The notes beneath the pieces were generated by a model. The model was not told the origin of the DNA. It saw only the letters and a program-made list of their open reading frames with translations, and did no database searches. 64,000 nucleotides of DNA from an uncultured Planctomycetaceae bacterium (lineage in GTDB: Bacteria; Planctomycetota; Phycisphaerae; SM23-33). Position numbers and translations under genes: made by a program. This document shows, piece after piece, positions 20,015 through 35,684 of the stretch (position 1 is the stretch's first letter; each line of letters begins with the position of its first letter). Where the stretch lies: positions 25,046 to 89,045 of the forward strand of contig CAYNYF010000002.1 of assembly GCA_964401385.1 (NCBI GenBank), in the 5' to 3' direction.

Positions 20015-20365
20015 ATGACGATTCAGAATTGGTCAGACGAAATTATTGTTGCCGAGATGGCCGACGACCCTCAGTTTGCCGACGAGATGGCGGCTCTGGC
20101 GGAGATGCTTGCCGGAAAGGGCGCCAACGTCGTGCTGAACCTGGGAGCTGTCAGTTTCATCAACTCATCGAGCATTTCCAGGCTGCTTCGCCTGCGAAAG
20201 CAGATGCTCGCCAGCGGCAAGCGACTGATCATTTGCGGCGTCAATGACCAGGTCGGGGGCGTCTTCGTGGTGACGGGACTGGACAATATCTTTGAGTTCA
20301 CCAAGGACGTGGCGACCGCCCTGACGAAGTTGCAGCTCGCCCAGGGCCAAGCGACCACGAGTTGA
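20015..20365 (+). CDS. STAS-domain anti-sigma-factor antagonist (SpoIIAA-like)
   Basis: 116 aa. VVLNLGAVSFINSSSISRLLRLRKQMLASGKRLIICGVNDQV, the STAS fold pattern with the conserved Ser. Confidence 0.75.
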   Translation: MTIQNWSDEIIVAEMADDPQFADEMAALAEMLAGKGANVVLNLGAVSFINSSSISRLLRLRKQMLASGKRLIICGVNDQVGGVFVVTGLDNIFEFTKDVATALTKLQLAQGQATTS

Positions 20366-20454
20366 TGGCGGCACGGCCGGTGAGTCGGCGCCAAAGGCGG
20401 CCTCGGGCCCGATCCGGCTGGCCGATGTCCTCGCTGCTGGCGGCTCATTTAGGC

Positions 20455-20482
20455 TTGCATCGGACGCGCCGGGGGCTATAAT
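20455..20482 (+). promoter_or_regulatory. Sigma-70-like promoter TTGCAT-N16-TATAAT for rpsU
   Basis: ttgcat cggacgcgccgggggc tataat, ~45 nt upstream of the rpsU ATG. Consensus -10. Confidence 0.45.
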
Positions 20483-20529
20483 TCTGCTTTTCGGGCGGTT
20501 AGCCAAGAGAAAGGAACCGTGGATTTAGC

Positions 20530-20739
20530 ATGATCAGGGTCAAGGCCAGAGGCAACGAATCGGTGGAGCAGATGTTGCGCCGGTTCAAGAAGATGTGTGA
20601 GAAGGAAGGTCTTACGAAGGACATCAAGCGCACCAGCTATTACGAGAAGCCTTCGGAACGACGCCGTCGCCGCATGCGCAAGAGCGTGAAGCGGCAAATG
20701 CAGGATGATAAGGGACGAGGCGGCCCGCGCTTTAGGTAA
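20530..20739 (+). CDS. rpsU: 30S ribosomal protein S21
   Basis: 69 aa. MIRVKARGNESVEQMLRRFKKMCEKEGLTKDIKRTSYYEKPSERRRRRMRK, the canonical bS21 sequence. Confidence 0.9.
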   Translation: MIRVKARGNESVEQMLRRFKKMCEKEGLTKDIKRTSYYEKPSERRRRRMRKSVKRQMQDDKGRGGPRFR

Positions 20740-21027
20740 AGAGTCAGGGAGACCATCAATCCACGAGCCCGGCCGCGGACGCCCCAGGCGCGCCGGACGG
20801 CATTCAGCGAAGTCTTCGGGGCTTGCCGCGCGGCGCCATGAGTTTTTCCCGGAAGGCTCCGCGATGCTGAGCTAGTTTTCGCCTCCCGATCTCCCTGAAA
20901 CGCTCGACATCACTCTCCAGCGCCGCGAGGAGCCGTCTTTCCGGGCTTCGCCCGGGGACCCCCGGGGCAGGCGGTGGCTCGACCGGCGGAAGGCAATGAG
21001 GCAGCAACGGCATAAAGGAATATCGCT

Positions 21028-23772
21028 GTGATGGTAGAAGTCGACTCCGGTGCCCGCCGCAATCTCATTTTGTTGGGTCTTCTCGCCAGCTTGGTCGTGT
21101 TGGGCGTGGCCGGTGCCGCCGTAGCTGACGACGGTGCGGGGGGATCGTCCGCTGTCAGCTTGTCGGACTTCTCTCGTTGGCACCCCATCTTGATCTGGTG
21201 GGTGGCGCCGATCGGGTCGCTGGTTGCCCTGCTTTTCGCCTGGCTGTTCTACCGGCAGGTCAAGAGGGCCAACGAGGGCGATGAGAACATGAAGGCCATC
21301 GCCAAATACGTCCGCGAAGGCGCGTACGCCTACTTGAAGCGTCAGTACAAAGTCGTCCTCGTGTTTTTCATCATCATGTCGGCGGTCCTGGCCGTGATGG
21401 GCCTGATCGGCGTGCAGCACCAGATCGTCTTTGTGGCGTTCCTGAGCGGGGGGTTCTTTTCGGGTCTGTGCGGCTTTTTCGGGATGAAGACCGCCACCAT
21501 GGCCTCCAACCGCGCCACCCAGGGCGCCAAGGAGAGTCTTAACCGCGGGTTGCAGGTGGCCTTCCGTGCAGGGGCGGTCATGGGGCTGGTGGTGGTGGGC
21601 TTCGGGCTGCTGGACATCAGCATGTGGTTCCTGATCCTGACCCAGTTTTCTCCCTGGCTGTACGGTGTGATGGGATGGGGTCCCTTCGAGATGTCCCTGG
21701 TGGAAGTGACGGTGGTGATGCTGACGTTCGGGATGGGGGCCAGCTCGCAGGCGTTGTTCGCCCGGGTCGGCGGGGGGATCTTCACCAAGGCGGCCGACGT
21801 CGGGGCCGACCTGGTCGGCAAGGTGGAGGCGGGCATCCCCGAGGACGACTCCCGCAACCCGGCTACCATCGCCGATAACGTCGGCGACAACGTCGGGGAC
21901 GTCGCCGGCATGGGGGCGGACCTGTACGAGAGCTACTGCGGCTCGATCCTGGCCACGGCCGCTCTGGGCGTGGCGGCGGCGACCTCGCTGACACTGGGCT
22001 TTGACGGCCAGATGCGACTGCTGGCGGCGCCGATGGTGCTGGCGGGCATCGGCATCGCCCTTTCCATCGTCGGCATTTTCATGGTCCGCACCCGCGAAGG
22101 GGCATCCATGAAGCAGCTCCTGGGCGCCCTGGGATTGGGCGTGAACGGCTCGACCGTTCTGATCGCCGGCGCCGCCGGGGCGGTCTGCTGGGTGCTGCTG
22201 AGCGGGATTCATCCGGACCTGCACTGGTGGGGCGTCTGGCTTTCGATCGTCAGCGGACTGCTCGCCGGCCTGGTCATCGGCAAGAGCGCCGAATACTACA
22301 CCAGCTACGACTACAAGCCGACCCGGGGCATCGCCGAGCAGTCCGAGACGGGTCCGGCGACGGTCATCATCGGCGGCGTCGCCGAGGGCATGAAGAGTAC
22401 CTGGGCGGCGCTGGCGACGGTGATCGTGGCCATCATGTGTGCCTACGCCTTCGCCGGCGGCTTCTCCAGCCCGCCGCTGGGTCTGTACGGGGTGGGCATC
22501 GCGGCCGTGGGAATGCTGGCGACACTGGGTATCACCCTGGCGACCGACGCCTACGGCCCCATCGCCGACAACGCCGGGGGCAACGCCGAGATGACGCACC
22601 AGCCGCCGGAGGTTCGTCAGCGGACCGACGCCCTGGACTCACTTGGTAACACCACGGCCGCGACGGGCAAGGGCTTCGCCATCGGCTCGGCCGCCCTGAC
22701 CGCGCTGGCCCTGCTGGCCGCCTACGTCGAGGAGGTCCGCGTCGGTCAGAACCGCCAGGCAATGACCGCCATCGTCAAGTACATGCCCGAGGCGAAGACC
22801 GACCCCGCGGCCGGGTTGGGCAAACTGTTCTATCTGGGCAAGAGAAAGTTCGGCGTGAAGATTAAGGAAGGCGTCAGGCAGGGCTGCTTCGGCGCGTTCA
22901 TGGCCGGGTCGCCCGTGCCCGAGAATTTGCGCGTCGGCCCGCTCAACGTCAAGCCCAGCAAGCCCATCTCGCCGGAACAATCGACGATAATGGTGATAAC
23001 GCCCAAGACCGAAAAGGACTTCAACACTTTCAAAACCGGCTATGAGCGCGCGCCCGACAGAGTGGGCCCTGCCTACGTGATGCCCCCTGACCCGGGGCTG
23101 AAGATCGAGGACGACCGGGTGATTTGCACGCTCGTCTCCACCCGCAAGGCCGGCCTGGGGCGGTTCATGAGCTTTTACGACGTGACGTTGATGAACCCCA
23201 AGGTTCTGTGTGGTCTGTTCTCCGGGGCGCTGCTGGTGTTCCTGTTCAGCGCCCTGACGATGAAGGCCGTCGGCCGGGCCGCCAACGCGATGGTCAAGGA
23301 GGTCCGCCGGCAGTTCAAGGAGATCCCCGGCATTATGGAGGGCACCGCAAAGCCGGATTATGCCCGCTGCGTGGCTATTTCCACGGCCGGGGCGCAGAGG
23401 GAAATGGTCCTGCCTTCGCTGCTGGCGCTGATCGTGCCGGTGGCGGTGGGGCTGCTGCTGGACGTGGGCGGCGTTCTGGGCCTGCTGGCGGGGGGGCTGA
23501 CCTGCGGCTTCGCCATGGCGATCTTCATGGCAAACGCCGGCGGGGCGTGGGACAATGCTAAGAAGTGGATTGAGACGGGCCAGCTCGGCGGCAAGGGCTC
23601 CGACAACCACAAGGCCGCCATCGTGGGCGATACTGTGGGCGATCCGTTCAAGGACACCTCCGGGCCGAGCCTGAACATCCTGATCAAGCTGATGAGCATG
23701 GTTTCGGTGGTCTTCGCCGGCATGACCGTCAAGTACGGTGCCCAGATCGCCGAGTGGCTGCACCTGCAATAA
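21028..23772 (+). CDS. hppA: Membrane-bound proton-translocating pyrophosphatase (H+-PPase) with an unusually long internal loop
   Basis: 914 aa. GIPEDDSRNPATIADNVGDNVGDVAGMGADLYESY and GDTVGDPFKDTSGPSLNILIKLMS signature motifs; multiple TM helices; ~150-aa insertion around residues 570-725. Confidence 0.9.
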   Translation: MMVEVDSGARRNLILLGLLASLVVLGVAGAAVADDGAGGSSAVSLSDFSRWHPILIWWVAPIGSLVALLFAWLFYRQVKRANEGDENMKAIAKYVREGAYAYLKRQYKVVLVFFIIMSAVLAVMGLIGVQHQIVFVAFLSGGFFSGLCGFFGMKTATMASNRATQGAKESLNRGLQVAFRAGAVMGLVVVGFGLLDISMWFLILTQFSPWLYGVMGWGPFEMSLVEVTVVMLTFGMGASSQALFARVGGGIFTKAADVGADLVGKVEAGIPEDDSRNPATIADNVGDNVGDVAGMGADLYESYCGSILATAALGVAAATSLTLGFDGQMRLLAAPMVLAGIGIALSIVGIFMVRTREGASMKQLLGALGLGVNGSTVLIAGAAGAVCWVLLSGIHPDLHWWGVWLSIVSGLLAGLVIGKSAEYYTSYDYKPTRGIAEQSETGPATVIIGGVAEGMKSTWAALATVIVAIMCAYAFAGGFSSPPLGLYGVGIAAVGMLATLGITLATDAYGPIADNAGGNAEMTHQPPEVRQRTDALDSLGNTTAATGKGFAIGSAALTALALLAAYVEEVRVGQNRQAMTAIVKYMPEAKTDPAAGLGKLFYLGKRKFGVKIKEGVRQGCFGAFMAGSPVPENLRVGPLNVKPSKPISPEQSTIMVITPKTEKDFNTFKTGYERAPDRVGPAYVMPPDPGLKIEDDRVICTLVSTRKAGLGRFMSFYDVTLMNPKVLCGLFSGALLVFLFSALTMKAVGRAANAMVKEVRRQFKEIPGIMEGTAKPDYARCVAISTAGAQREMVLPSLLALIVPVAVGLLLDVGGVLGLLAGGLTCGFAMAIFMANAGGAWDNAKKWIETGQLGGKGSDNHKAAIVGDTVGDPFKDTSGPSLNILIKLMSMVSVVFAGMTVKYGAQIAEWLHLQ

Positions 23773-23835
23773 TGCGTCGAGAGCGCGAGACGCCGGTCGA
23801 ACCGGCCGGCGGACCGGGCGAACAATACCTCAGGA

Positions 23836-24282
23836 ATGTCCACGGACCCGGCAGACATACGCCGCGTGAAGAAACCCAAGCCGCGGCCCCCCTCGCCGCG
23901 TCGGTTGGCGGTTGAGATTGCCCGAACGGCGCATGACCGGCACTGCGTCGACATCGCGGTGCTGGATTTGCGCGGGATCAGCCCGGTGACGGATTACTTC
24001 GTGATCTGCACGGGCACCTCCGACCGGCAGATGCGTTCCGTTGCCGAGGAGGTGGTCACCGAGGCGGCCAAATCCGGCCAGCCGGTGTACAACGTTGCGG
24101 GGCTGGATTCGACCAAGTGGGTCCTGCTGGACTTCGTGGACGTGGTGGTACACATCTTCGACGCGGAATACAGGCGGCATTACGACCTGGAACTGATCTG
24201 GGGAGACGCCCGATCGGTCAGTTGGCGGCCGCCGCAGAGAAGGCACGCCAAAGACGCGAAAGGGAACGGCGATGGATCTTGA
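23836..24282 (+). CDS. rsfS: Ribosomal silencing factor RsfS (Iojap family)
   Basis: 148 aa. CVDIAVLDLRGISPVTDYFVICTGTSDRQMRSVAEEV...WVLLDFVDVVVHIF, the RsfS/DUF143 core. Confidence 0.8.
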   Translation: MSTDPADIRRVKKPKPRPPSPRRLAVEIARTAHDRHCVDIAVLDLRGISPVTDYFVICTGTSDRQMRSVAEEVVTEAAKSGQPVYNVAGLDSTKWVLLDFVDVVVHIFDAEYRRHYDLELIWGDARSVSWRPPQRRHAKDAKGNGDGS

Positions 24283-24613
24283 GCAGCAACTGAGAGAGGA
24301 GTTCCGCCGGGCCATCGACGAACTGGTCAAGCCGCCCGTGCTGGTGGGGGCGAATTGGCTTCGGTCGTGCCCCAGCGGCAAGCCGGCCGATTTCCAGTTC
24401 ATGGGCACGGGAAAGATGGCCAAGGCCACCGGCAAAGCGCCCAGGCGCATTGCACGCGGCCTCCTGAAGATAGTGAAGCTCAAGGAAATAGGACTGCGGG
24501 CCGAGCTCGCGCCCAACGGGACCATCAACCTCTGGAAGGTCAAGTCGCCCAAGAAGCCCCCATCCGGGAGCAAGGAAAAGAAAGGGTCCCAGGCCGAAAA
24601 CGGCAAGCCGTAA
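24272..24613 (+). CDS. Standalone paralog of the arginyl-tRNA synthetase N-terminal (tRNA D-loop-binding) domain, with a Lys-rich C-terminal tail
   Basis: 113 aa. LREEFRRAI...KPADFQFMGTGKMAKATGKAPRRIARGLLKI...AELAPNGTINLW aligns colinearly with ArgS residues 1-87 (LEDRLRDAL...RPEFGDYQANGVMPAAKAIGTNPRKLAEKVL...AEVAGPGFINIRL). Tail KVKSPKKPPSGSKEKKGSQAENGKP. Same reading frame as argS, separated by TAA plus 4 codons. Confidence 0.55.
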   Translation: MDLEQQLREEFRRAIDELVKPPVLVGANWLRSCPSGKPADFQFMGTGKMAKATGKAPRRIARGLLKIVKLKEIGLRAELAPNGTINLWKVKSPKKPPSGSKEKKGSQAENGKP

Positions 24614-24625
24614 GCGTCCGCTCGC

Positions 24626-26467
24626 ATGAACATTCGTCGGCAGCTTGAAGATCGTCTGCGAGACGCCCTCGCGACCGCCACGGGCAAGCCGGACCTTCCC
24701 GCCCTCATCACCCCGTCAACCCGCCCGGAATTCGGCGACTATCAGGCCAATGGCGTGATGCCCGCGGCCAAGGCGATCGGCACCAACCCGCGCAAGCTCG
24801 CGGAGAAGGTGCTGGCCGCCGCCGGTCTGTCCGATCTGGCCGAAAGCGCCGAGGTCGCCGGGCCGGGGTTCATCAACATCCGCCTCGGCGACGACTGGCT
24901 GGGGCAGCGACTCGTCGAACTGGCCGGCGACGGACGCCTGGGAGCGGAGAGCCCCGACAGGCCGCAGACGATCGTGGTCGACTATTCCGCCCCCAACCTC
25001 GCCAAGGAGATGCACGTCGGCCACCTTCGCTCCACCATCATCGGAGACGCCCTGACTCGCGTCCTGGAGTTCCTCGGCCACAACGTCATCCGACAGAACC
25101 ACGTCGGCGACTGGGGAACGCAGTTCGGGATGCTCGTGGCGAACTGGGACGACATGGTCCGGGGCAAGACGAGGGCGCCGGACGGAGATTACGGTCCGAA
25201 GTCCGCCTACGTCGGAATCGAAGACATGGAGGAGTTCTATCGAGAGGCAAAGAAGAAGTTCGACACGGACCCCGAGTTCCAGGCCCGCGCCCGACAAGCC
25301 GTGGTCGACCTTCAGACCGGCAAACAACAAGTGCTGGGCAAATGGCAGAAGGTCGTCTCGGAATCGCTTTCGCACGTCGCAACGGTGTATCGTCGCGTTG
25401 GAGTCGGACTCTACGAAGACCACGAGCGCGGGGAGAGCTACTACGGCGGACTCGTCCGGGATGAATTCGGAGGACACAAGTACTTACCCGGACGGAATAT
25501 GCTGCCAAAGGTTGTCGAGGCCCTGCGGGCCAAGGGCCTGCTGGAAGAGTCCGAGGGCGCCCAGTGCGTTTTCGTCGATGAGTTCAAGGGCAAGGACGGC
25601 GAGCGGCTGCCGCTGATCGTCCAGAAGTCGGATGAAGGGTATCTCTATTCCACGACGGACCTTGCGGCGATTTGGTTCCGCTGTGGGAAGGGCCAAGCCG
25701 CCGGGCAGGTCGATTGGAAGGCGGATCGGATCCTGTACGTGGTGGACGCCCGGCAGAGCCTGCACTTCCGCATGGTCTTCGCCGTCGCCCGCGCCGCCGG
25801 CTTCGCCCCGGAGGCGGTCCGCCTGGAGCACGTGGCCTTCGGGACGATGATGGGCGCTGACGGCCGGCCGTTCAAGACCCGTGAAGGCGGAACGGTCAAG
25901 CTTATCGACCTGCTGGACGAGGGCGAGAGCCGGGCAAAGGCCGTGGTCTTGGAAAAGAACCCCGAGCTGAATGGCGACGCGCGGGCCGACGAGATCGCCC
26001 GCATCGTCGGCATCGGTGCGATCAAGTACGCCGACCTGTCCCAGAACCGCACCAGTGACTACGTCTTCAGCTTCGACAAGATGCTCGCCCTGGACGGCAA
26101 CACCGCCCCGTACATGCAGTACGCCTACGCCCGGATCCGCAGCATTTTCCGCAAGGGCGGTGAGACCGATTTCGACCCGGCCGGCGTGAAAATCGCCCTG
26201 GCCGCCCCGGCCGAACGAGTTCTGGCAGTCAAGCTGCTGCAATTCCCCGAGACGCTCCAGGCCGTTGCCGACGAGTGCCTGCCGAACCTCCTGTGCGCCT
26301 ACCTGTACGACCTCGCCGTCGCCCTTACCAGGTTCTACGAGAACTGCCCCGTGCTCCAATCCCCCGAGCCGGTTCGCTCCAGCCGGCTGGCGCTGTGCGC
26401 CTTGACGGCCGGCCTCATCCGCACCGGGCTGGACCTCCTCGGCATCCAGACCGTCGAGCAGATGTAG
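24626..26467 (+). CDS. argS: Arginine--tRNA ligase
   Basis: 613 aa. Class I HIGH motif (PNLAKEMHVGHLRSTIIGD), anticodon-binding C-terminal domain, N-terminal Arg_tRNA_synt_N-like domain. Confidence 0.9.
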   Translation: MNIRRQLEDRLRDALATATGKPDLPALITPSTRPEFGDYQANGVMPAAKAIGTNPRKLAEKVLAAAGLSDLAESAEVAGPGFINIRLGDDWLGQRLVELAGDGRLGAESPDRPQTIVVDYSAPNLAKEMHVGHLRSTIIGDALTRVLEFLGHNVIRQNHVGDWGTQFGMLVANWDDMVRGKTRAPDGDYGPKSAYVGIEDMEEFYREAKKKFDTDPEFQARARQAVVDLQTGKQQVLGKWQKVVSESLSHVATVYRRVGVGLYEDHERGESYYGGLVRDEFGGHKYLPGRNMLPKVVEALRAKGLLEESEGAQCVFVDEFKGKDGERLPLIVQKSDEGYLYSTTDLAAIWFRCGKGQAAGQVDWKADRILYVVDARQSLHFRMVFAVARAAGFAPEAVRLEHVAFGTMMGADGRPFKTREGGTVKLIDLLDEGESRAKAVVLEKNPELNGDARADEIARIVGIGAIKYADLSQNRTSDYVFSFDKMLALDGNTAPYMQYAYARIRSIFRKGGETDFDPAGVKIALAAPAERVLAVKLLQFPETLQAVADECLPNLLCAYLYDLAVALTRFYENCPVLQSPEPVRSSRLALCALTAGLIRTGLDLLGIQTVEQM

Positions 26468-26506
26468 TCGAGCCCTCCGGCTCCGGCCGGCTGTGTCGGG
26501 CGGCGG

Positions 26507-26530
26507 CATGCTTCTGGAAGCAGAAGCATG
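26507..26530 (+). terminator. Perfect 10-bp stem / 4-nt loop hairpin (CATGCTTCTG-gaag-CAGAAGCATG) 40 nt downstream of the argS stop
   Basis: Inverted repeat read directly from the sequence. There is only a short T-run afterwards (gtcttt), so rho-independent termination is unproven. Confidence 0.3.
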
Positions 26531-26548
26531 GCACCATCGCCCTAAGTC

Positions 26549-26577
26549 TTTGCGAAACCGACAAAAGCGGTTAGAAT
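26549..26577 (+). promoter_or_regulatory. Sigma-70-like promoter TTGCGA-N17-TAGAAT upstream of the dockerin-repeat protein gene
   Basis: ttgcga aaccgacaaaagcggt tagaat, ~130 nt upstream of the ATG at 26708. Confidence 0.35.
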
Positions 26578-26707
26578 ACGGGCTGTGCAGTGCTCGTCGA
26601 CGGGACGATCACAACCCCAGCGGGAAACGAGGAGGAACAGGTCCGTCGGGCCTGCAACCAAGCCGCGGCAGCAGCGCCAAGAGGACCCGTTCTCAAAGGA
26701 CCGCGCC

Positions 26708-29305
26708 ATGAAAAACAACCGAACGGACAGGATCCGATGTTTGGCCGGGGTAATCCTTCTGGCGGTGGGGGCCTTCTGCTGGGCCGACGAGCCCCCGCTG
26801 CCGGGCGACGCCAACAACGACGGCGCCGTAGATGGCGCCGACTACACCATCTGGGCCGACAACTACGAGCCCGGGGTGGCGGGCAAGACCTGGGAGCAGG
26901 GCGACTTCAACGGCGACGGCATCGTCGACGGCGGCGACTACACCATCTGGTCCGACAACTACAACGCCGTCCCATTCCGCGCCGATATCCAGATCTACAA
27001 TAACACCGGCTCCGCCAAGACGAATTGGCCGGTCCTGCTGACCGTCTGGAAGGTCTTCGGGGCGAACCTGGACCTGGACAAGCTCAATTCGGCCGGCTTT
27101 CACGTCTACGACCAGACGGGCGCGGAAGTCCCGCACATGATCCGGCCGATCCCGCCGGATTTCAGCCTGGGCAACGACGAGATCGTGTTCATCATCCCCC
27201 AGATGGCCGCCGGCCAGACGCTGAACTATCGCGTCACCAACACCTCCCTGCCGGGCATGACCCAGCAGATTAACCTGATCGACAACCCCAACAACATGCT
27301 GCCCAACGGCGGCTTCGAGACCGATACCGGCGGGGTGCCGACGGGCTACTACGTGGCCTCGGGCAGCGCGTCGACGATTTCGTACGACACCGCCACCAAG
27401 CACTCGGGAATGCGCTCGATGAAGCTGACCCTGCCGGTCGGCATGGCCGTCACGCTGAAGACTAGCGCCACCGTGCCCATCGGCCAGGGGCTGCATTACC
27501 ACTTCAGCATCTGGGGCAAGACCGACAACCTCGCCTACACCGGCTACGGCTTCACGGGCGGCGGCAGGATCCGGTTTGAATCGACGGCCTTCACCGGGCG
27601 GAGCGAGCTGACCCTTCGCGACTACCGCCCGTGGTTCTGTTACCGCTTCGATTCAGACGACCCCGACGCCTGGGGCGTTCCCTGCAACGGCTCCAAGGGC
27701 GTCGCCAGTCGCCAGGTCCGGCTGTCGCTGTCCGCCTACCAGGAGAACAAGCCCTTCCTGACCGGCACCCGGACCGGCAGGATCTGGCTCGACGAGGCGC
27801 TGCTGCTGGTCCAGCCGAAGATCACCGTGGACCGGCAGACGCCGCTGGCGAACGTGGCCAAGAAGGGGGCGGTGATCGTCGCCCGCCCGGTAAACATGCC
27901 GCGGTACAAGGCCTTCGCCCACGAGGCCGTCAGCAGCTTGAAGGCCTTCGCCATGCGCGGGCAGCGCCATCAGCTTCGCTTCGGCGTCCACGCCGTGCAG
28001 ACGCTTCAGAACGTTCAGGTCTACGTCATGCCCCTGAACGGGCCCGGCGGGCAACTGTCCGGCGGGAACCTGGATCTGGAGAGGCTGGGCAGCTTCGTCG
28101 AGGACTACGCAAGCCTGATCGAGCTGGCCGCCGGCAACACGGCCGAGTACCTGCTGGGCATCGACGTGCCGGCCGGCTTGCAGCCGGGGACGTACAAGGG
28201 CCTGGTCATCGTCACGGCCGGTACGCGGACGCTGGGCGTCCTGCCGTTGGAGATGGAGGTCCTGCCGATTGACGTACCGTCCATGGAGGGGACCTACGTG
28301 GGGGGCATCTACAACATCGGCTACCCACTGGATCGCGACGACCGATTCTACACCTGCTACGGCAAGGTGCGCTTCAACTTCCTGATGCTGTTCGATTACT
28401 TCTCGACGCACATGGGCGGAGATGAGATCGACCTGGCAGGCGCCCAGCAGCAGGTGGACAAGATGGCCACGCTGGCCCACGTCACCGGCGGCATCGGCTT
28501 GTACCGCGAGCCGAACATGAGCCGCGACCAGCCCCGGAAGTGGTACCAGATCGCCAGCAACACCGAGTTCGACCCGCTGGACCCCTACGGCAGCAGCACC
28601 ACCGACCCGCAGTACATGAGCGGCTACCAGGACCTGGCCGAGCAGCTTGAGACGTATGCAATCCAGCACAACTGGCCCGACATGATCTACATGGTCAGCG
28701 ACGAGCCGGACAGAGCGGCCGACGTCGACCCGTCCATGGGCTGGCTGAACGATCGCCTGCCCAATGCCATCACCAACTGCGACACCCAGTACCACGACAT
28801 GGTCAAGACCTGGAGTTGGTACAACATGCCGGTGCTGGACGATCCGGCCCACTGGACCGGTCCGCTGATGTACGACTACGTTCGGGCCAATTCAGGACGG
28901 TTCGGCATCTGCGGGACGGCCTTGGGCCTGTCGGCCGGGCGCTACCAGCCGGGGTTGATGATGGCGTCTTCCGGGGCGTGCTACTGGCACTGGTGGCACA
29001 CGCAAAGGGCCATCCAGGAGATCGGCGGGAAGGTGCTTCGGATGCACCACGTGGCGGCCATGGGCGCCGGCGCCAACGACCTGCGCTACTACCTGGTGCT
29101 GAAGGACAGGATCGCCAACTGCACCGACCCCGCCCTGGCAACCGCCGCCCAGGCCTGGCTGGACGACATCTTCTCCTTCTGCTCGGCCGATCACGACCGT
29201 CACCTGCTGCCTTACAACGGCGTGCCGGTCGACTGGGGCTACGACCGCTGGTATGACGACTGGCGCTCCGACATGAAGGACATCATCCTCACGCTGCCAC
29301 AGTAG
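26708..29305 (+). CDS. Large secreted protein with two N-terminal dockerin-like repeats and a CBM/jelly-roll-like region; function unknown (possibly carbohydrate-active)
   Basis: ATG at 26708 (the track ORF starts upstream at 26585). Signal peptide MKNNRTDRIRCLAGVILLAVGAFCWA; repeats DANNDGAVDGADYTIWADNY and GDFNGDGIVDGGDYTIWSDNY; ~865 aa total. Confidence 0.7.
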   Translation: MKNNRTDRIRCLAGVILLAVGAFCWADEPPLPGDANNDGAVDGADYTIWADNYEPGVAGKTWEQGDFNGDGIVDGGDYTIWSDNYNAVPFRADIQIYNNTGSAKTNWPVLLTVWKVFGANLDLDKLNSAGFHVYDQTGAEVPHMIRPIPPDFSLGNDEIVFIIPQMAAGQTLNYRVTNTSLPGMTQQINLIDNPNNMLPNGGFETDTGGVPTGYYVASGSASTISYDTATKHSGMRSMKLTLPVGMAVTLKTSATVPIGQGLHYHFSIWGKTDNLAYTGYGFTGGGRIRFESTAFTGRSELTLRDYRPWFCYRFDSDDPDAWGVPCNGSKGVASRQVRLSLSAYQENKPFLTGTRTGRIWLDEALLLVQPKITVDRQTPLANVAKKGAVIVARPVNMPRYKAFAHEAVSSLKAFAMRGQRHQLRFGVHAVQTLQNVQVYVMPLNGPGGQLSGGNLDLERLGSFVEDYASLIELAAGNTAEYLLGIDVPAGLQPGTYKGLVIVTAGTRTLGVLPLEMEVLPIDVPSMEGTYVGGIYNIGYPLDRDDRFYTCYGKVRFNFLMLFDYFSTHMGGDEIDLAGAQQQVDKMATLAHVTGGIGLYREPNMSRDQPRKWYQIASNTEFDPLDPYGSSTTDPQYMSGYQDLAEQLETYAIQHNWPDMIYMVSDEPDRAADVDPSMGWLNDRLPNAITNCDTQYHDMVKTWSWYNMPVLDDPAHWTGPLMYDYVRANSGRFGICGTALGLSAGRYQPGLMMASSGACYWHWWHTQRAIQEIGGKVLRMHHVAAMGAGANDLRYYLVLKDRIANCTDPALATAAQAWLDDIFSFCSADHDRHLLPYNGVPVDWGYDRWYDDWRSDMKDIILTLPQ

Positions 29306-29325
29306 CAGCACAGGGCCCAACCGCC

Positions 29326-29346
29326 ACGTCTGCTGTTCGCAGACGT
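29326..29346. terminator. 8-bp stem hairpin (ACGTCTGC-tgttc-GCAGACGT) between convergent genes; possible bidirectional terminator
   Basis: Inverted repeat in the 62-nt gap between the convergent stops at 29305 (+) and 29368 (-). No flanking T-run. Confidence 0.2.
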
Positions 29347-29367
29347 CTGCGCCCGGGCCGGAGCGGG

Positions 29368-30144
29368 CTAGGACGATTGATTTGTGCTGGCGGGTTGGCC
29401 GGTGGGGCGTTTTGGCTTGGTCACGCCGAACCAGTCCCACCAGGGCCTCTTGGGCTCCGGCGGCTTGGCGAAGGGATCAGCCTTGGCGGCGAGGACCCTC
29501 TGCCATTCGTCGGCCTCGGGGCCGGCGTCCTCGCCGGTCAGCTCCCGGAGGGCCTGACTCGCGCGAAAGCGGACGCCGTAGGCCGGGTCTTGCAAGCATA
29601 CAAGCAGCGTCGCCAGTACCTCGCGCCGCTGGTAGTGACGAAGCGCCCCCGCGGCGGCGGCGCGGACATCGACGGAGTCGTCGGTCGTGGCCGCTTCGGA
29701 GAGGATCTTGACGGGCAAGTCGGCTTCCTCCCTGGCGCCGGCGGCTAGGTCGACCATCCGATCCAGCGCCACGGCCGCATCCCACCGCACAACCGCGTCG
29801 GGGTCCTTCAGCGATGCCGCGACCACTTTGACGTACTTCACATTCCCCGACCGGCCGAGGGCCCGCAGGGCGGCGCTTCGGACGGTGGCGGCCGGGTCGC
29901 CCGTCATGGCCGCGTAGTAGGTCAGATACGGCTCCCGCCTGCCCCGGCCCTTGCCGGAAAGCTTTTCAACGGCCTGGCGGCGCAGGTCGGCGTCGCACGA
30001 CTTGAGCATCTGCTTGACCAATTGGTCGCGCGACGGCCCGAACAGCCTGGTCATCAGTCTGCCGCGGGCTTTCCCATCACCGGAGCCGCACCCGGCCGCC
30101 GCAACCGCCGTCGCAAGAACAAGCAAGCGCGGGAAATACTTCAT
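29368..30144 (-). CDS. HEAT-repeat lipoprotein (hypothetical)
   Basis: Only the C-terminal 258 aa of the 469-aa track ORF is credible. MKYFPRLLVLATAVAAAGCGSG is a lipobox-type signal, followed by HEAT/PBS-like repeats (...AVRWDAAVALDRM...VRAAAAGALRHY...VRFRASQALREL). The ATG overlaps the murI stop as ATGA. Confidence 0.6.
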   Translation of the reverse strand: MKYFPRLLVLATAVAAAGCGSGDGKARGRLMTRLFGPSRDQLVKQMLKSCDADLRRQAVEKLSGKGRGRREPYLTYYAAMTGDPAATVRSAALRALGRSGNVKYVKVVAASLKDPDAVVRWDAAVALDRMVDLAAGAREEADLPVKILSEAATTDDSVDVRAAAAGALRHYQRREVLATLLVCLQDPAYGVRFRASQALRELTGEDAGPEADEWQRVLAAKADPFAKPPEPKRPWWDWFGVTKPKRPTGQPASTNQSS

Positions 30145-31013
30145 ATCTCTTGTGCTCCGCGTCCGCCGACCATGGGCAGGCAGGCGGCCAGTTCGTCGGT
30201 GCCGACCCAGGCCACCTCGCCGACCTCCCGGCCGGCGAAGCGTCGGGCTACCCTGGCAAATCGCTCCGGGTTGTCGGTGGAAAAGCATCGCAGCGTGCCG
30301 CTGGAGCGGGCGCTGAGCAGCCCGCTGTCGCACAGATGCGCCTGGATGCGCTCGGCGGCGGCCTGCCCGGGGTCCAGCAGCAGGGCCTCCGGGCCCATCA
30401 ACTTGGCGATGGCGTCCGAAAGCAGCGGATAGTGCGTGCAGCCGAGAATGAGCACGGCCGGACGGGCACGCTGGAGGTCGTGCAGGTAGTCGCTCAGGAC
30501 GTGCAGCACGATGGGGTCGTCCTGCGACCGGCCCTCCTCGACGATCGGCACCAGCAGCGGGGCGGCGGCCGCCAGAACCCGGCAACTGCCGTCCAGCGCC
30601 CGAATCGCCCGCTGGTACGCCCCGGAGATGATGGTCGCCTCGGTGCCAATCACGCCGATGGTTCGCCCCTGGGCCAACTGGACGGCTCGCACCGCCGCCG
30701 GCTGGACGACCCCGATCACCGGCACGGGGCAAATCCGGCAGATCGCATCCAGTGCCACGGCCGAGGCCGTGTTGCACGCCACCACCAGCAGTTTCGGATC
30801 GAACCGCAGGAGAAAGGCCGCGTCCTGCAAGGCGAAGTCCCGAACGGTGCGGGCCGACTTGATGCCGTAGGGTACCCGGGCCGAATCGCCCAGATACACC
30901 ACGTCTTCGGTCGGCATTCGCTCCAGCAGTTGCCTGACGACCGTCAGCCCGCCCAGGCCGGAATCGAAGACGGCGATCGGCCGCTCCGCGCTCTTGCTGG
31001 CTCCCGCGTCCAT
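30141..31013 (-). CDS. murI: Glutamate racemase MurI
   Basis: IAVFDSGLGGLTVV...LVVACNTASA...LGCTHYPLL, canonical MurI motifs. Start trimmed to the ATG at 31011-31013. Confidence 0.85.
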   Translation of the reverse strand: MDAGASKSAERPIAVFDSGLGGLTVVRQLLERMPTEDVVYLGDSARVPYGIKSARTVRDFALQDAAFLLRFDPKLLVVACNTASAVALDAICRICPVPVIGVVQPAAVRAVQLAQGRTIGVIGTEATIISGAYQRAIRALDGSCRVLAAAAPLLVPIVEEGRSQDDPIVLHVLSDYLHDLQRARPAVLILGCTHYPLLSDAIAKLMGPEALLLDPGQAAAERIQAHLCDSGLLSARSSGTLRCFSTDNPERFARVARRFAGREVGEVAWVGTDELAACLPMVGGRGAQEI

Positions 31014-31033
31014 TCGAGCAACGAGAGTATCAG

Positions 31034-31888
31034 TCAAGGGGCAACTCTGGCAAGAAGTTGTTGCACGGCGGCCAGGGGGACCCTCGGCCGTCCAAGGCGG
31101 GCTTCCGGCTTGCCGGAGCCGTGGAAGTCCGAGCCGCCGGTCACCAGTAGGCTCAGGCGCCTGGCCAGACCCAGGTAGGCGCGGGTCTGGGCGGGGCTGT
31201 GGTCGGAGTGATAGACCTCGACGCCGTCCAGGCCGTAGCCGACCAGCCAGCGCACGGCCCGCTCGAGCTGGGCGAAGTTGGCGCATTGAAGCTGCAAGGG
31301 GTGGGCCAGGATAGCCAGCCCGCCGGCGGCGTGAATGGCCTCGACCGCCTGGGCCGGCGCGAGCCGCTCCTTGTCAACGAAGGCCGCCGCCCCGTAGCCC
31401 AGGTAACGCCGGAAGGCCTCCGTGACGGTGCGGGCGTAGCCCTTCTGGCAGATGAGCTTGGCCATGTGCAACCGGCCCAGAACGGCCGTGTCGGAATCGG
31501 CACCGCCGGCAACCTGCCGGAGTTGGTCCATCGTCACGTCCACGCCCAAGGCCTGCAACTTGGCGATCATCTTGGGGTTTCGCTGGTTGCGCTGCTCCAG
31601 GAGGTCCCTCAGGGTTTCGGTCAAGACCGCCGAGGCCGGATCGAGCCCCAACCCGAGGATGTGCAGCGTTCCGCCGGAGAACCGGGCGGATATCTCCACG
31701 CCCGGGATGAAGCGAACGGGCAACCCCGCGGCGGCGCGGGCGGCCTCGGCCAAGCCGGCCAGCGTGTCGTGGTCGGTCAGCGCGATGGCCGCGAGGCGCT
31801 TGGACTCAGCTTGTTGGACCACTTCCGCGGGGGTTAGGTCCCCGTCGGACGCAACGGAGTGGATGTGCAGGTCGACGAAATTTCGCAT
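31034..31888 (-). CDS. PHP-domain phosphoesterase (TrpH/YciV-like 3',5'-nucleoside bisphosphate phosphatase family)
   Basis: 284 aa. MRNFVDLHIHSVASDGDLTPAEVV...ALTDHDTLAG...LAHP, the PHP metal-binding His/Asp motifs. Confidence 0.8.
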   Translation of the reverse strand: MRNFVDLHIHSVASDGDLTPAEVVQQAESKRLAAIALTDHDTLAGLAEAARAAAGLPVRFIPGVEISARFSGGTLHILGLGLDPASAVLTETLRDLLEQRNQRNPKMIAKLQALGVDVTMDQLRQVAGGADSDTAVLGRLHMAKLICQKGYARTVTEAFRRYLGYGAAAFVDKERLAPAQAVEAIHAAGGLAILAHPLQLQCANFAQLERAVRWLVGYGLDGVEVYHSDHSPAQTRAYLGLARRLSLLVTGGSDFHGSGKPEARLGRPRVPLAAVQQLLARVAP

Positions 31889-31912
31889 GTCGCGTGTGCA
31901 GCGGACCGAAAC

Positions 31913-34273
31913 TCACTTTTCCCGACCAAAGGCTGCCGCCATCTCGCGAACGGCGGCGTCCGGGTCCTTCGCAAATACCTCCAGCAGCGTCTTGTAGCCC
32001 TTGGTCCGCTGGCCGGCCAACAGCTCGATCAGGCGCATCCGAACCAGGGGCGATGGATCCTCAACGTTCGGGCCCATCAGGGCGATGATCCTCCCGTCCA
32101 AGTCCACGTGCTGAAGGGCGGCAAGCATCTCGGCCCGGACCAGCGCCGAGGGCGCCTTGAGGAAAGCCCGCGTCATGCTCAGCAGGATGGGCTTCGTCAG
32201 CACCTTGGGGAAGGCCGCCTCGGCCTTTCCCTGCTCGACGCTTCGAACGTATCCCAAAAGCGAGGCGGTCAGCCGCGCCGCCCGGAGCTGGGCGGGCAGG
32301 TCGCCCTGTTGGAGGTCCCCCACGATGCAGGCCAGGGCGTACCTGACGGCGGTCTCGTCCGCCGACGCCTGGATGAATCCCGCCCGTTCGATCTCCACCG
32401 GTGGGATCTTCACGCCAGGCGCTGAAGACATCACCTTGTCGCCGCGCTGGAGCGGGTCGAGGACCGCACTGACGGTAAGTTTCAGGTCCGCGATCGGGTG
32501 CGCCATCAGGAATGTCTGGGCCGGGCCGACGTCCAAGCGAACTCTCTGGCGGACGCTTTGGCCCGGCGGAAGATACCTCGGTGCGGGCAGGTGCGCCGCC
32601 GTAAGGTTAGGCAGGGCGGTCTTGGCGGCGCCTTCGACGGTGAGGCTCAGAAACACCACCGGCGTAAACAGCCCGTCCGGGCCGAGGGTAAGGCGATGCT
32701 GCGAGACGTTCTTTAGCTCGAGTGTGACGGCAATGGGTTCGCCGGGCGCGACCCTGTTGGCCGCGGCGGCCAGCGTGATGCTGACGAGCCGTTCGGGGAA
32801 ACGGCCGATTTGAAAGACGTCCGCCGGCAGCTTCGCCTGAACGTCCCGGAGTTGCTTGGCGTGCGGCACCGGCGGCAGAGCTACCTTGTGCTTGCTGGCG
32901 ACAGCGGCCAGCTCGCGCCAGGCCGGGCCGGTGCGCGGGTTGCCTGCGGCCTCAAGCAGCACCGCTTGCGCCTTGGCCGGCGCGCCCGCCGCGAAGTAGT
33001 GCCGCGCGAGGATGGCCGCCGCGAAGGGGTCTTTGGCCGCCAGCGGGGTCAGGAGCTTCAGGCCCCCCTGGACTTGGCCCGCCTCCATTCTGGCGGCCCC
33101 GAGCACGCGCTGGATGAAGGGGTCGTCCCCGGCCGACATTTCCGCGGCCTTGGCCCATTCCAGAGCCACCTTGGGCTGGGCGCGGAAGTGAAGATCGAAC
33201 CATCCCAGCTCGGCCATTTGCGACCCGGTGCGCTTGACGGCGGGGGCGCTGAGCGGCTCGTACACCCTGGCCATGAAATCGACGTGTGCCTTCGCCTGGT
33301 CGTCTTGCCCCAACGAGCGGCAGGCCTCCACCATCAGCGCCCGCAGAGCCAGGCTGTGCCCGTGCTCCTTGGCGACGGACTGGAACAGCTCCAGGGCCTT
33401 GGCGGCCTGGCCGGAGTCGAGCATCGCGTTGGCATAGTCGATCAGGAACGTGTTCAGAACGTTCTGGGCCGGGGGCCTGTCCTTGGAAAGGGCGTAGCCG
33501 TGCTCGTAGAACTTCAGCGACTCCAGGTACAGCCCGGCCGACTGAAGCCTCTGGGCTAGCTCCCAGGCGGCGTCGAGGTCTCGGGGATTGGCCTGAAGGG
33601 ATTTCAGCGTCAACTGGAAGGCGTCGATCAGGCCGGTTTTCTTCTCCAACCGCGCCTGCTCCCGAAGCGCAGTCGGCTCGTCGGGATCGAGCTCCAGCGC
33701 CCGGCGGCAGGCCGCCTTCGACTTTGCGGTGTCTCCCTGGCGGAAGTAGACTTGACAAAGCTCGGCCTCGGCCGCGGCGCGGAACTCCGGCAGGAACCGT
33801 TCGCGGGCGACGATCTCCTCCAGCAGTGCCCGGCGCTGGTCGGCCCGGTTGAGCGTAGCCTGGCCCAGGTGCATCCAGCGGACGGCCATGGCGTAGTCAT
33901 TCGGGCGGGCCCGCAGGTAGCGGTCGGCCGCGGCGGTCGCTCGCTCCAGCTCGCCGGAGCCCTCGTACAGGTCAACCAACTGCCGGTTGGTCCGGACATG
34001 ATCGCCCCGGAGACGACTGGCGTATCCCAGCAGGGCGCGGATCCTGCCAAAGCGCGCGACGACGGACTCGTCCCGGAGGTGTCCGAGGCAGCGGGCGGCG
34101 TGATTGAGGCTGTCCACCGTCAGCGCTGCCTCGGGCGCCGGCGCGGTGCTCGGCGCCGTGGCCGTTCCGGCCGGGGCCGACTGAGCCCCGGCAACAACCC
34201 ACGTGGGAAAGATCCACAGCAGCGCCGCCGCCCCTGCCGCCCACAATGTTGAGCTGATCGCTCGTGTCTGCAT
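31913..34273 (-). CDS. Secreted TPR-repeat protein with a C-terminal HEAT-like region (hypothetical)
   Basis: 786 aa. N-terminal signal peptide, multiple TPR-like helical repeats, C-terminal HEAT-like repeats. Confidence 0.65.
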   Translation of the reverse strand: MQTRAISSTLWAAGAAALLWIFPTWVVAGAQSAPAGTATAPSTAPAPEAALTVDSLNHAARCLGHLRDESVVARFGRIRALLGYASRLRGDHVRTNRQLVDLYEGSGELERATAAADRYLRARPNDYAMAVRWMHLGQATLNRADQRRALLEEIVARERFLPEFRAAAEAELCQVYFRQGDTAKSKAACRRALELDPDEPTALREQARLEKKTGLIDAFQLTLKSLQANPRDLDAAWELAQRLQSAGLYLESLKFYEHGYALSKDRPPAQNVLNTFLIDYANAMLDSGQAAKALELFQSVAKEHGHSLALRALMVEACRSLGQDDQAKAHVDFMARVYEPLSAPAVKRTGSQMAELGWFDLHFRAQPKVALEWAKAAEMSAGDDPFIQRVLGAARMEAGQVQGGLKLLTPLAAKDPFAAAILARHYFAAGAPAKAQAVLLEAAGNPRTGPAWRELAAVASKHKVALPPVPHAKQLRDVQAKLPADVFQIGRFPERLVSITLAAAANRVAPGEPIAVTLELKNVSQHRLTLGPDGLFTPVVFLSLTVEGAAKTALPNLTAAHLPAPRYLPPGQSVRQRVRLDVGPAQTFLMAHPIADLKLTVSAVLDPLQRGDKVMSSAPGVKIPPVEIERAGFIQASADETAVRYALACIVGDLQQGDLPAQLRAARLTASLLGYVRSVEQGKAEAAFPKVLTKPILLSMTRAFLKAPSALVRAEMLAALQHVDLDGRIIALMGPNVEDPSPLVRMRLIELLAGQRTKGYKTLLEVFAKDPDAAVREMAAAFGREK

Positions 34274-34286
34274 CGTTTTACCGCCG

Positions 34287-35684
34287 CTACTGCGGAGGCA
34301 GCGTGATCATCAGCATCTGGCGGTCCTGTTCGCCGCGCTTGACCAGGAACTGCACCGGCTCTGTCGCGGCGGACAGTTCCTTGAGCACCTTGCCCAGCGT
34401 CTCCACGTCCGGAATCGGCTTGTCGCCGACGTGGGTGATGATGTCGCCGGGCTGCAACTTGCCCGTCGCCGCCGGCGAATTCGGCAGCACCAGCGTCGCC
34501 AGCACGCCCCGGGTGGTGAGCGCGCTCACCCGGCCGGGGTAGCGGTCGAAGTCCACCAGATTGCGGCAGGCGATGCCCAGCGCTTGGTTGTAGTAGCGGG
34601 GCGCCTCGTGCGGCTGGAGCGGCATCAGCTCCAGCGTCACCTGGGCCTCAAAGGTCGACCCTTCGCGGAAGAGGGTCAGCGAGATTCGATCCCCGGCCTT
34701 GAAGCGATACAGCAGCCGCCGGAAATTCGTGGCAATCAGTGCTGGCGTGGGCAGCTCCGGCAGCGGCTTGCCGTTCAGGCCGACGATGGCGTCGCCCTGC
34801 TTGACGTTGGCCTTATCGGCCGGCCCGCCCGATCGCAGTTGCTCGATCAGAACGGCCGGCTTGCCCGCCGGCAGCTTCTTGATCTCGGCCTCTTCGGCGG
34901 CAACGCGCTTGTATCTCCACACGCCCATCCACGCCAGCCTGCGCGACTCTCCCTTTTGGGGGATCCGGCCCAGGACATGGGCGAATTCCGCAACGGGGAG
35001 GAAGAATCTGGTGCTTTGCAGGCCCGCCAGACCGATCTCCGTCCATCGATTTCGCAGCAGCATTCGGAATTCCATCGGAATCTGCTGGGAGACGATGCCG
35101 ACCATCCGACCGTCCGAGGCGAACACCGGGCTGGAGGCATTGGTCAAATCCCCGCCGCTGACATAGATCACCTCGCCGGGCATGCGAAGCTTGGCCGCCA
35201 CCCGGGCGACGCCGACGTACGGCACGTTCCCCGTCTGCGGGCCGAGCAGCCCCACGCCGATCACCTGCTGACCCAGTTTCAAGTCCACGCGGACGAACTT
35301 CAGGTCCTTCCAAGGGTGCTTGCCCGTGACGCGAAGGAAGGTGAGGTTCTCTTCCGGATCGGTGCCCATCAGCTCGGCTTTGAACTTTTTCTCGGTCGAG
35401 CCGCTGGGAATCAGGAAGAAGTCTCTGAATTCATCAGCCGGCACGGCCCCGGAGACATCGCGCGTGAGGAAGACGCCGTTGGCCGCATCGATGCAGACGC
35501 ACTGCCCGATGCGCTTCTGCACGCCCACCATTTCGTTGTGGTAGACGTACTCCAGGCGTGCCAGGGCGCTGCTTGCCTTGGCCGCTATTTGCGCGATGGC
35601 ATCCTCCGACGCCCCTTGCCCGTACGACGCCGCCGTCAGAGAGCATATCAGGCCCAGCGCGAGCGGCACCTTGTTTCTATTCAT
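34287..35684 (-). CDS. HtrA/DegP-like periplasmic protein with two PDZ domains; catalytic triad apparently substituted
   Basis: 465 aa. Signal peptide, trypsin-fold region, then two PDZ-like segments (GDAIVGLNGKPL, GDIITHVGDKPI). The expected GNSGGP Ser motif reads TNASSPVF, and the His/Asp positions read TRDV and NLTFL. Confidence 0.7.
   Translation of the reverse strand: MNRNKVPLALGLICSLTAASYGQGASEDAIAQIAAKASSALARLEYVYHNEMVGVQKRIGQCVCIDAANGVFLTRDVSGAVPADEFRDFFLIPSGSTEKKFKAELMGTDPEENLTFLRVTGKHPWKDLKFVRVDLKLGQQVIGVGLLGPQTGNVPYVGVARVAAKLRMPGEVIYVSGGDLTNASSPVFASDGRMVGIVSQQIPMEFRMLLRNRWTEIGLAGLQSTRFFLPVAEFAHVLGRIPQKGESRRLAWMGVWRYKRVAAEEAEIKKLPAGKPAVLIEQLRSGGPADKANVKQGDAIVGLNGKPLPELPTPALIATNFRRLLYRFKAGDRISLTLFREGSTFEAQVTLELMPLQPHEAPRYYNQALGIACRNLVDFDRYPGRVSALTTRGVLATLVLPNSPAATGKLQPGDIITHVGDKPIPDVETLGKVLKELSAATEPVQFLVKRGEQDRQMLMITLPPQ

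Follow-up and report, generated by a model that had tools for sequence, protein, structure and literature searches.

Domains of aminoacyl-tRNA synthetases have several times been duplicated and freed as genes with a new or auxiliary role, as in AlaX, YbaK/ProX, HisZ, and YadB/GluQRS. In bacteria, the domain with which pyrrolysyl-tRNA synthetase binds tRNA, at its N terminus, occurs as a free-standing protein, PylSn, and Arc1p, like the extensions of eukaryotic synthetases, uses Lys-rich segments for nonspecific tRNA affinity. Freed copies of this kind (AlaX, YbaK, Trbp111, PylSn, and HisZ) have repeatedly been shown to act in editing, tRNA chaperoning, or regulation. The Add1 domain (Pfam PF03485) is specific to arginyl-tRNA synthetase (ArgRS) and reads the identity base A20 in the D-loop of the tRNA; we found no description of a free-standing copy in the searchable literature. 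Here we analyze a 64,000-nucleotide stretch of contig CAYNYF010000002.1 from an uncultured Planctomycetaceae bacterium (hereafter, the window), in which a short open reading frame (ORF) between rsfS and argS, the mini-ORF, encodes a diverged relative of the Add1 domain. The mini-ORF is a genuine, separately translated gene that belongs to a conserved and apparently undescribed family of small proteins. Overall, it is best explained as a conserved stand-alone copy of Add1 that is most likely coupled to argS and probably serves the ArgRS/tRNA-Arg system in trans as an accessory factor.

A separately translated gene of a conserved family

The first-pass annotation of the window reported an ORF of 113 codons, which the ORF list reproduces in position and sequence, and a colinear resemblance of ~30% to the first ~87 residues of the downstream ArgS protein. 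BLASTP agrees, with 28 of 89 aligned residues identical (31%; E value, 6e-9) and mini residues 1 to 87 matched to ArgS residues 1 to 85, starting at residue 1. The assignment to the ArgRS N-terminal domain (N-domain) is also borne out at the profile level. Pfam PF03485 (Arg_tRNA_synt_N) covers mini residues 6 to 87 (27.5 bits; E value, 5e-6), exceeding the gathering score of 21.5, and profile-profile alignment by hhalign of the mini family with the N-domains of co-resident ArgS proteins gives a probability of 97.6% (E value, 4e-12; 85 columns). PF03485 was the sole Pfam match on the mini protein, even at an E value of ≤10, and the PDB sequences matched by the mini-family profile at an E value of <0.001 were exclusively ArgRS. 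GC content at the three codon positions of the mini-ORF is 0.60/0.45/0.82, a coding-like pattern (third position of argS, 0.85). A 293-residue ORF on the opposite strand (window positions 23830 to 24711) spans the entire mini-ORF and has the shadow-ORF look of high-GC DNA; the conserved protein at this locus is on the forward strand, and support for the antisense ORF was neither sought nor found.

An identity as an arginine-tRNA ligase was ruled out, as the 113-residue protein consists of the N-domain alone, without a class I catalytic domain (HIGH and KMSK-like motifs) or a DALR anticodon-binding domain. The NCBIfam ArgRS models TIGR00456 and NF002447 score it at 18.4 and 10.7 bits, versus cutoffs of 460 and 262. 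In practical terms, present source annotation leaves family members unnamed or mislabeled as "arginyl-tRNA synthetase"; the Joint Genome Institute (JGI) label of this kind on some members is a domain-level misannotation, and no NCBIfam model covers the family.

Five more proteins of 113 to 115 residues, 50 to 88% identical and ending at the same stop, come from unrelated metagenome assemblies, and on all of their contigs rsfS is followed by a mini-ORF with its own stop and then by argS. A copy with 38% identity occupies the same position in a Planctomycetaceae genome bin. When a profile of six close homologues was searched against 1.84 billion representative proteins (E value, ≤0.001), 75 representatives were retrieved, all of them 92 to 217 residues long, with full-length ArgS proteins absent; two of the 75 are evidently pieces of a truncated ArgS, and one is seemingly chimeric. 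Residue counts given below refer to the resulting family alignment of 76 sequences, of which only 25 reach significance with the Pfam Add1 model (E value, ≤0.01). At the DNA level, a hand-made degenerate pattern applied to metagenome contigs yielded 9 loci; a scan of a genome collection with the six close homologues yielded one locus, its patterns being too narrow. A word-indexed search with the 76-sequence profile, capped in its number of candidates, contributed little more. The mini-ORF thus recurs in many assemblies, nearly always in the order rsfS-mini-argS. Because both the ORF and its stop recur in independent assemblies, the TAA is real and the first-pass view that the copy is no assembly artifact was sound.

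In a neighbor-joining tree of ten mini/ArgS N-domain pairs together with the E. coli sequence, the minis group in a clade of their own, separate from that of the ArgS N-domains. Each mini is as distant from the N-domain of its own ArgS (22% identity) as from those of foreign ArgS proteins (also 22%), and so nothing suggests repeated duplication or gene conversion. The single mini clade in this 10-locus tree instead points to a partial duplication of argS, at its 5' end, that took place once and long ago and was followed by divergence; in sequence, the mini now differs from every ArgS N-domain examined. Mean identity is 37% among minis, versus 60% among co-resident ArgS N-domains. At synonymous divergences (dS) of ~1, the ratio of nonsynonymous to synonymous substitution rates (dN/dS) is 0.26 to 0.41 for the mini core, 0.25 to 0.37 for argS, and 0.18 to 0.25 for rsfS, which indicates purifying selection on the mini core similar to that on argS. 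These ratios, the monophyly of the minis, and the residues that are invariant across the family accord with the diverged, old, and maintained duplication that had been proposed from the window.

We give next to no credence to the view that the mini-ORF is a functionless leftover, in decay, from the tandem duplication of part of argS, or a product of misassembly. Its place directly upstream of the parent gene does resemble a fresh tandem duplication, and it has evolved faster than the ArgS N-domain, as the two mean identities attest. However, ~72 diverged clusters have retained an uninterrupted ORF of comparable length in which four residues are invariant. The argS-like selection on its core, its monophyly, a conserved motif specific to the family, a confident AlphaFold2 fold, and the persistence of the gene away from argS in one lineage all stand against decay.

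Fold, conserved motifs, and the A20 pocket

AlphaFold2, run with the family alignment, returned a mean predicted local-distance difference test score (pLDDT) of 86 over the whole mini protein, divided between a confident core and a poorly ordered tail (Table 1). In a Foldseek search of the PDB, the best 19 matches were all ArgRS N-domains, from Klebsiella, E. coli, Thermus, Pyrococcus, Neisseria, human, and Plasmodium, at a root-mean-square deviation (rmsd) of ~2.0 to 4.3 Å; the best 11 aligned across 88 to 96 columns at 2.0 to 3.1 Å, and the matches that followed were noise. As modeled, the mini protein has the Add1 fold of ArgRS.

Conservation within the family is concentrated in two segments. 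In the family-specific motif, L24 and W29 are invariant (76/76), while G26 is present in 70 and P21 in 67 of the 76 sequences; the G-x-x-W-L-x-x-x portion of this motif is an insertion relative to ArgS N-domains. In the helix motif, K51 and A52 are invariant and K48 occurs in 64/76 sequences, with a near-invariant G45 close by; the A-K pair of this motif is common to ArgS N-domains (A48 and K49).

The core is basic across the family, with a median net charge of +5. The Lys-rich C-terminal tail described in the first-pass annotation is indeed present (residues 91 to 113) and is predicted to be disordered. Among family members, the tails range from 1 to 125 residues, are of low complexity, and evolve faster than the core. 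Because only 24 of the 76 are basic (+3 or more), with 6 acidic, a Lys-rich tail does not define the family and reads as a feature of this lineage. A subfamily represented by L014 (positions 2212 to 2730; P0045) and P0050 has an additional conserved stretch at the C terminus, PKA[VI]x[FY]xGRLVG[KR]RP[VL]VWGEMAK, beyond the Add1-like core; this extended form has no family match and no rsfS upstream (L numbers denote related loci).

In E. coli ArgRS, tRNA base A20 is held in a pocket of F36, Q40, A78, and N84, with F82 stacking (Stephen 2018, as relayed in PMC8975779; PMC3956977 also treats the pocket residues). The pocket includes the Tyr/Phe-x-Asn motif. The equivalent residues of the window mini are P38, Q42, A80, N86, and, at the stacking position, T84; Q42, A80, and N86 are thus kept, and F36 and the stacking F82 are lost. 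Co-resident ArgS proteins retain every residue of the pocket.

Junctions with rsfS and argS and the gene neighborhood

The arrangement of the mini-ORF between its two neighbors is summarized in Table 1. The 11-nt overlap with rsfS is also present in L008 and L005 and extends to 35 nt in L001, and purine runs comparable to the Shine-Dalgarno-like sequence of the window lie upstream of the mini start in relatives. On the argS side, the first-pass remark that this gene has no obvious ribosome-binding site of its own stands, as the 12-nt spacer holds no Shine-Dalgarno-like sequence. Ten distances between the mini stop and the argS start were tabulated: −4 nt (an ATGA overlap) at three junctions, +4 nt at one, +11 nt at two, +12 nt at two, and 75 to 93 nt at two. 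The pattern is typical of translational coupling, a mechanism that we infer here from sequence. Given the 12-nt stop-to-start distance and an argS without a Shine-Dalgarno sequence, termination-reinitiation is the most likely form of coupling in the window. Coupling had been raised as conceivable, and the tight spacing in relatives makes it plausible.

Such junctions would also suit a mini-ORF whose main role lies in cis: as an upstream coupling ORF it would pass ribosomes on to argS, and its peptide would be incidental. Under that explanation, ribosomes would enter at the AAGGGA 6 nt upstream of the mini-ORF, as argS has no equivalent, and the stop-to-start distances of −4 to +12 nt at 7 of the 10 tabulated junctions would be expected. 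We consider it very unlikely, since a cis role would not preserve the amino acids, the fold, and the invariant Trp and Lys across ~72 clusters, and since the protein is kept both where the gap is 75 to 93 nt and at one locus without argS.

The mini-ORF and argS were further reported to share a reading frame, separated by TAA and 12 nt ("*ASAR" and then M). This is confirmed for the window; the stop-codon readthrough into a double-N-domain ArgS that had been entertained on this basis was not upheld, as the shared frame is not conserved among relatives. Were the TAA a site of programmed readthrough or a sequencing error, the mini-ORF would be an N-terminal extension of a single ArgS with two tandem N-domains. 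In the window and its closest relatives, the shared frame, the single stop, and the four codons between the ORFs are compatible with such a product; at L018 and L020, too, one stop is all that interrupts a common frame, and L032 is in frame as well. In nine of ~14 lineages, however (L001, L005, L013, L014, L016, L023, L024, L026, and L029), the two ORFs are out of frame, through 11-nt gaps, 4-nt ATGA overlaps, or a 4-nt gap. The in-frame share of about one third is the level expected by chance, and readthrough is therefore not supported. The stop is kept in every independent assembly, the stop in the window is TAA, which is the least leaky stop codon, and the mini gene of the L021 subfamily does not adjoin argS. 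Taken together, a fused product is highly improbable.

Beyond these junctions, the mini-ORF belongs to a conserved string of genes, (STAS)-rpsU-hppA-rsfS-mini-argS, and the upstream order STAS/rpsU/hppA is shared by L016, L018, L033, and L034. In 16 of 17 distinct contexts argS lies directly downstream of the mini gene, and rsfS lies upstream in most; at L014 and L024, mini-argS has no rsfS next to it. The argS product has a canonical N-domain, with FGDYQ and AGPGFIN intact, as well as its catalytic and DALR domains, and these motifs are invariant in the co-resident ArgS proteins. At L021, which represents a diverged subfamily, the mini gene (577 to 861) is followed by a gene for a pyrR-like phosphoribosyltransferase (934 to 1473; P0077) and argS is absent nearby, showing that the mini gene can persist alone.

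The conserved upstream position of rsfS makes a ribosomal role the main live alternative to an ArgRS-related one. The mini protein would then be a ribosome-associated partner of RsfS in silencing or hibernation, with its Add1 fold reused to bind rRNA or a ribosomal protein. Several lineages have an rsfS that overlaps the mini start by 11 to 35 nt, rpsU (ribosomal protein S21) stands at the head of the cluster, the basic core and the frequent basic, low-complexity tails recall ribosomal proteins, and the A20 pocket is lost. Against this, L014 and L024 keep mini-argS without an adjoining rsfS, and the gaps between rsfS and the mini gene, which reach 130 nt, exceed those between the mini gene and argS in both size and variability. 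We regard it as unlikely, though less so than a role in cis or a fused product.

Two further candidates were ruled out. An arginine-sensing leader peptide does not agree with a folded, conserved domain of 113 residues in which Arg (8/113) is not obviously enriched. An immunity decoy against antibiotics that target ArgRS does not agree with the surroundings, as every locus lies among housekeeping genes and no biosynthetic cluster is present.

Table 1. Features of the mini-ORF and its surroundings (window coordinates)
Feature	Position	Strand	Description	Basis or remark
STAS anti-sigma antagonist gene	20015-20365	+		Conserved cluster
rpsU (S21)	20530-20739	+		Conserved cluster
hppA	21028-23772	+	H+-pyrophosphatase	Conserved cluster
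rsfS	23836-24282	+	Ribosomal silencing factor	Pfam PF02410, 103 bits; conserved upstream neighbor
Shine-Dalgarno-like AAGGGA	24260-24265	+	6 nt before the mini ATG	Read from the sequence; putative function
rsfS/mini overlap	24272-24282	+	11 nt	rsfS TGA at 24280-24282
Mini-ORF	24272-24613	+	Stand-alone ArgRS Add1 paralogue, ATG to TAA, 113 aa	Pfam PF03485; homologues of 50-100% identity, same length and stop
Folded core	24272-24541	+	Residues 1-90, alpha-beta-beta-alpha-alpha-beta-beta Add1 topology	AlphaFold2, block-mean pLDDT 90-97
Family-specific motif	24332-24361	+	Residues 21-30, PPVLVGANWL; consensus PxPLIGxKW[FL]	Family alignment, hhalign
Helix motif	24413-24433	+	Residues 48-54, KMAKATG; consensus K[LIV]AKATG	Family alignment
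Disordered tail	24542-24610	+	Residues 91-113, Lys/Pro/Ser/Gly-rich, net charge +5	pLDDT 52-63, about 55
Spacer from mini stop to argS ATG	24614-24625	+	12 nt, no Shine-Dalgarno-like sequence (gcgtccgctcgc)	Likely coupling site
argS	24626-26467	+	Complete, 613 aa	PF03485, 71.5 bits; PF00750, 378.6 bits; PF05746, 118.7 bits
Stable hairpin	26498-26542	+	Long near-perfect G+C-rich stem, no T-run	31 nt past the argS stop

The hairpin that follows argS probably marks the end of the transcription unit and may be its terminator; the RNA of 26468 to 26560 folds at −42.1 kcal/mol (z score, −2.2). Rfam detected no RNA family within the window, tRNA genes were absent from the window and from 13 related loci, and a promoter and terminator scan near the mini-ORF returned nothing above the shuffled expectation.

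A longer gene order is common to the window (20015 to 35684), L033, and L034. It runs from STAS, rpsU, hppA, rsfS, mini, and argS to a gene for a dockerin-like protein of ~900 residues (missing in L034) and continues on the opposite strand with genes for a HEAT-repeat protein, an Asp/Glu racemase, and PHP, PALP, ThiF, TPR, and PDZ protease proteins; in the downstream part of the window, only PHP, TPR, and PDZ were confirmed. The dockerin-like protein of the window (26585 to 29305, forward strand; 906 residues) has dockerin-like repeats near its N terminus and no Pfam or NCBIfam match, and its counterpart after argS in L033 has a weak Dockerin_1 match. Synteny of this length on two long contigs ties these family members to one lineage. 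A nearby protein with a prepilin-type N-terminal domain is weakly informative on the taxon.

Two irregularities were observed at the sequence level. Compared with its closest relative, L008, the window shows 91 to 99% identity over most of rsfS, the mini-ORF, and the two ends of argS, 35 to 77% in mid-argS (24900 to 25800), and ~76 to 82% in two segments of the H+-pyrophosphatase gene (21900 to 22350 and 22950 to 23250). The pattern is that of a recombination-like mosaic, and the ArgS proteins differ in length (613 residues in the window versus 575 in L008). In L003, which lies on the same contig as L028, the sequence leaves argS after about five codons, from ~1440 onward (MNVRRTVWIIPH...), whereas L005, with an identical mini-ORF, runs on as a normal argS; the departure in L003 probably reflects chimeric assembly or rearrangement.

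Proposed role and comparison with known systems

An accessory role in binding RNA or ArgRS is the most likely function of the mini protein, because of its fold, its charge, and its near-obligatory adjacency and coupling to argS. In the scheme that we favor, the mini-ORF would be translated from the conserved gene string, its start overlapping the rsfS stop, and translation of argS would depend on termination at the mini stop and reinitiation. Coupling of this kind would deliver the mini protein and ArgS together and in fixed proportion. The mini protein would then act in trans as an accessory of the ArgRS/tRNA-Arg system, its basic domain of RNA-binding fold, often with a basic tail, binding RNA (tRNA) or docking on ArgRS. 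With its pocket decayed, it would not read A20 in the manner of ArgRS; a new invariant surface, made of the PxPLIGxKW segment and the KLAKA helix, appears to have been fixed in its place.

Several observations weigh against this explanation or limit its reach. The A20 pocket has decayed across the family as well as in the window: the F36 position is Pro in 52/76 members, the stacking position is Trp in 3/76 with Phe and Tyr outside its eight most frequent residues, the N84 equivalent is Asn in only 21/76, and the Q40 equivalent is Gln in 35/76. Since the pocket is not conserved, canonical reading of A20 is not under selection in the minis, which argues against a simple extra reader of the tRNA-Arg D-loop. 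The role as a tRNA-binding cofactor like Arc1p or Trbp111, proposed by analogy in the first-pass annotation, is weakened accordingly. Most members have tails that are not basic or are even acidic, and the two junctions with gaps of 75 to 93 nt mean that tight coupling is not universal. In the closest pair, the window and L007, dN/dS is ~1, a value that comes from very few substitutions and is accompanied by 0.87 for rsfS. Assignment of the family to the Planctomycetota depends on one titled genome bin and on shared synteny.

A more specific scheme is offered tentatively, and we think it doubtful as it stands. ArgRS would pair with a dedicated, co-translated small subunit whose PxPLIGxKW/KLAKA surface binds tRNA or ArgRS, tuning the charging of tRNA-Arg or linking it to RsfS. 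If true, this would make the mini protein the first cofactor of a bacterial ArgRS to act in trans, as well as the first functional free-standing Add1 domain. More generally, the locus presents a conserved family with its own invariant motif, nearly always tied to argS by probable translational coupling and clustered with genes for a ribosome silencing factor and S21. Should the mini protein bind tRNA or ArgRS, it would add an accessory part to a bacterial system that is usually seen as a single polypeptide and would provide a clean case of a recognition domain that changed its function after partial duplication.

Among described systems, the closest relative is the Add1 domain of ArgRS itself (PF03485; structures 3gdz, 5b63, 1iq0, and 2zue), which the mini protein resembles in fold, topology, and sequence. 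The minis keep the FQ of GDYQ and the A-K pair of helix 2, and that of the window also keeps Q42, A80, and N86. Unlike Add1, the mini protein is a separate polypeptide with no catalytic domain fused to it; it has lost the stacking F82 and F36 and has gained the PxPLIGxKW segment and a variable, disordered tail.

PylSn offers a parallel in gene organization, as here too the N-terminal tRNA-recognition domain of a synthetase is encoded by a small gene beside the synthetase gene. The folds are unrelated, however, and PylSn is the sole copy of its domain, as PylSc is without it and a single enzyme is reconstituted from the two halves. A split of the PylSn/PylSc type was ruled out for the mini-ORF: a full N-domain is present in the downstream ArgS (71.5 bits) and in every co-resident ArgS protein examined. 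Because ArgS keeps its complete N-domain, the mini protein is an extra paralogue.

With Trbp111, Arc1p, and EMAPII, the mini protein may share a similar logic, that of a small relative of a synthetase appendage acting in trans. Those proteins have an oligonucleotide/oligosaccharide-binding (OB) fold (Pfam tRNA_bind) and derive from appendages of the MetRS or PheRS type, whereas the mini protein has the alpha/beta fold of Add1. Neither the Pfam search nor the confident Foldseek matches included an OB-fold tRNA_bind domain, which rules out an OB-fold protein of the Trbp111/Arc1p/EMAPII type.

AlaX, YbaK/ProX, HisZ, and YadB/GluQRS share an evolutionary theme with the mini protein and differ in origin, as their sources are editing or catalytic domains and their activities are known, while the mini protein derives from Add1. 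Overall, the mini protein matches the general pattern of synthetase domains that were copied and became free-standing paralogues, among which it represents a new family whose members are probably accessory factors associated with RNA or with ArgRS.

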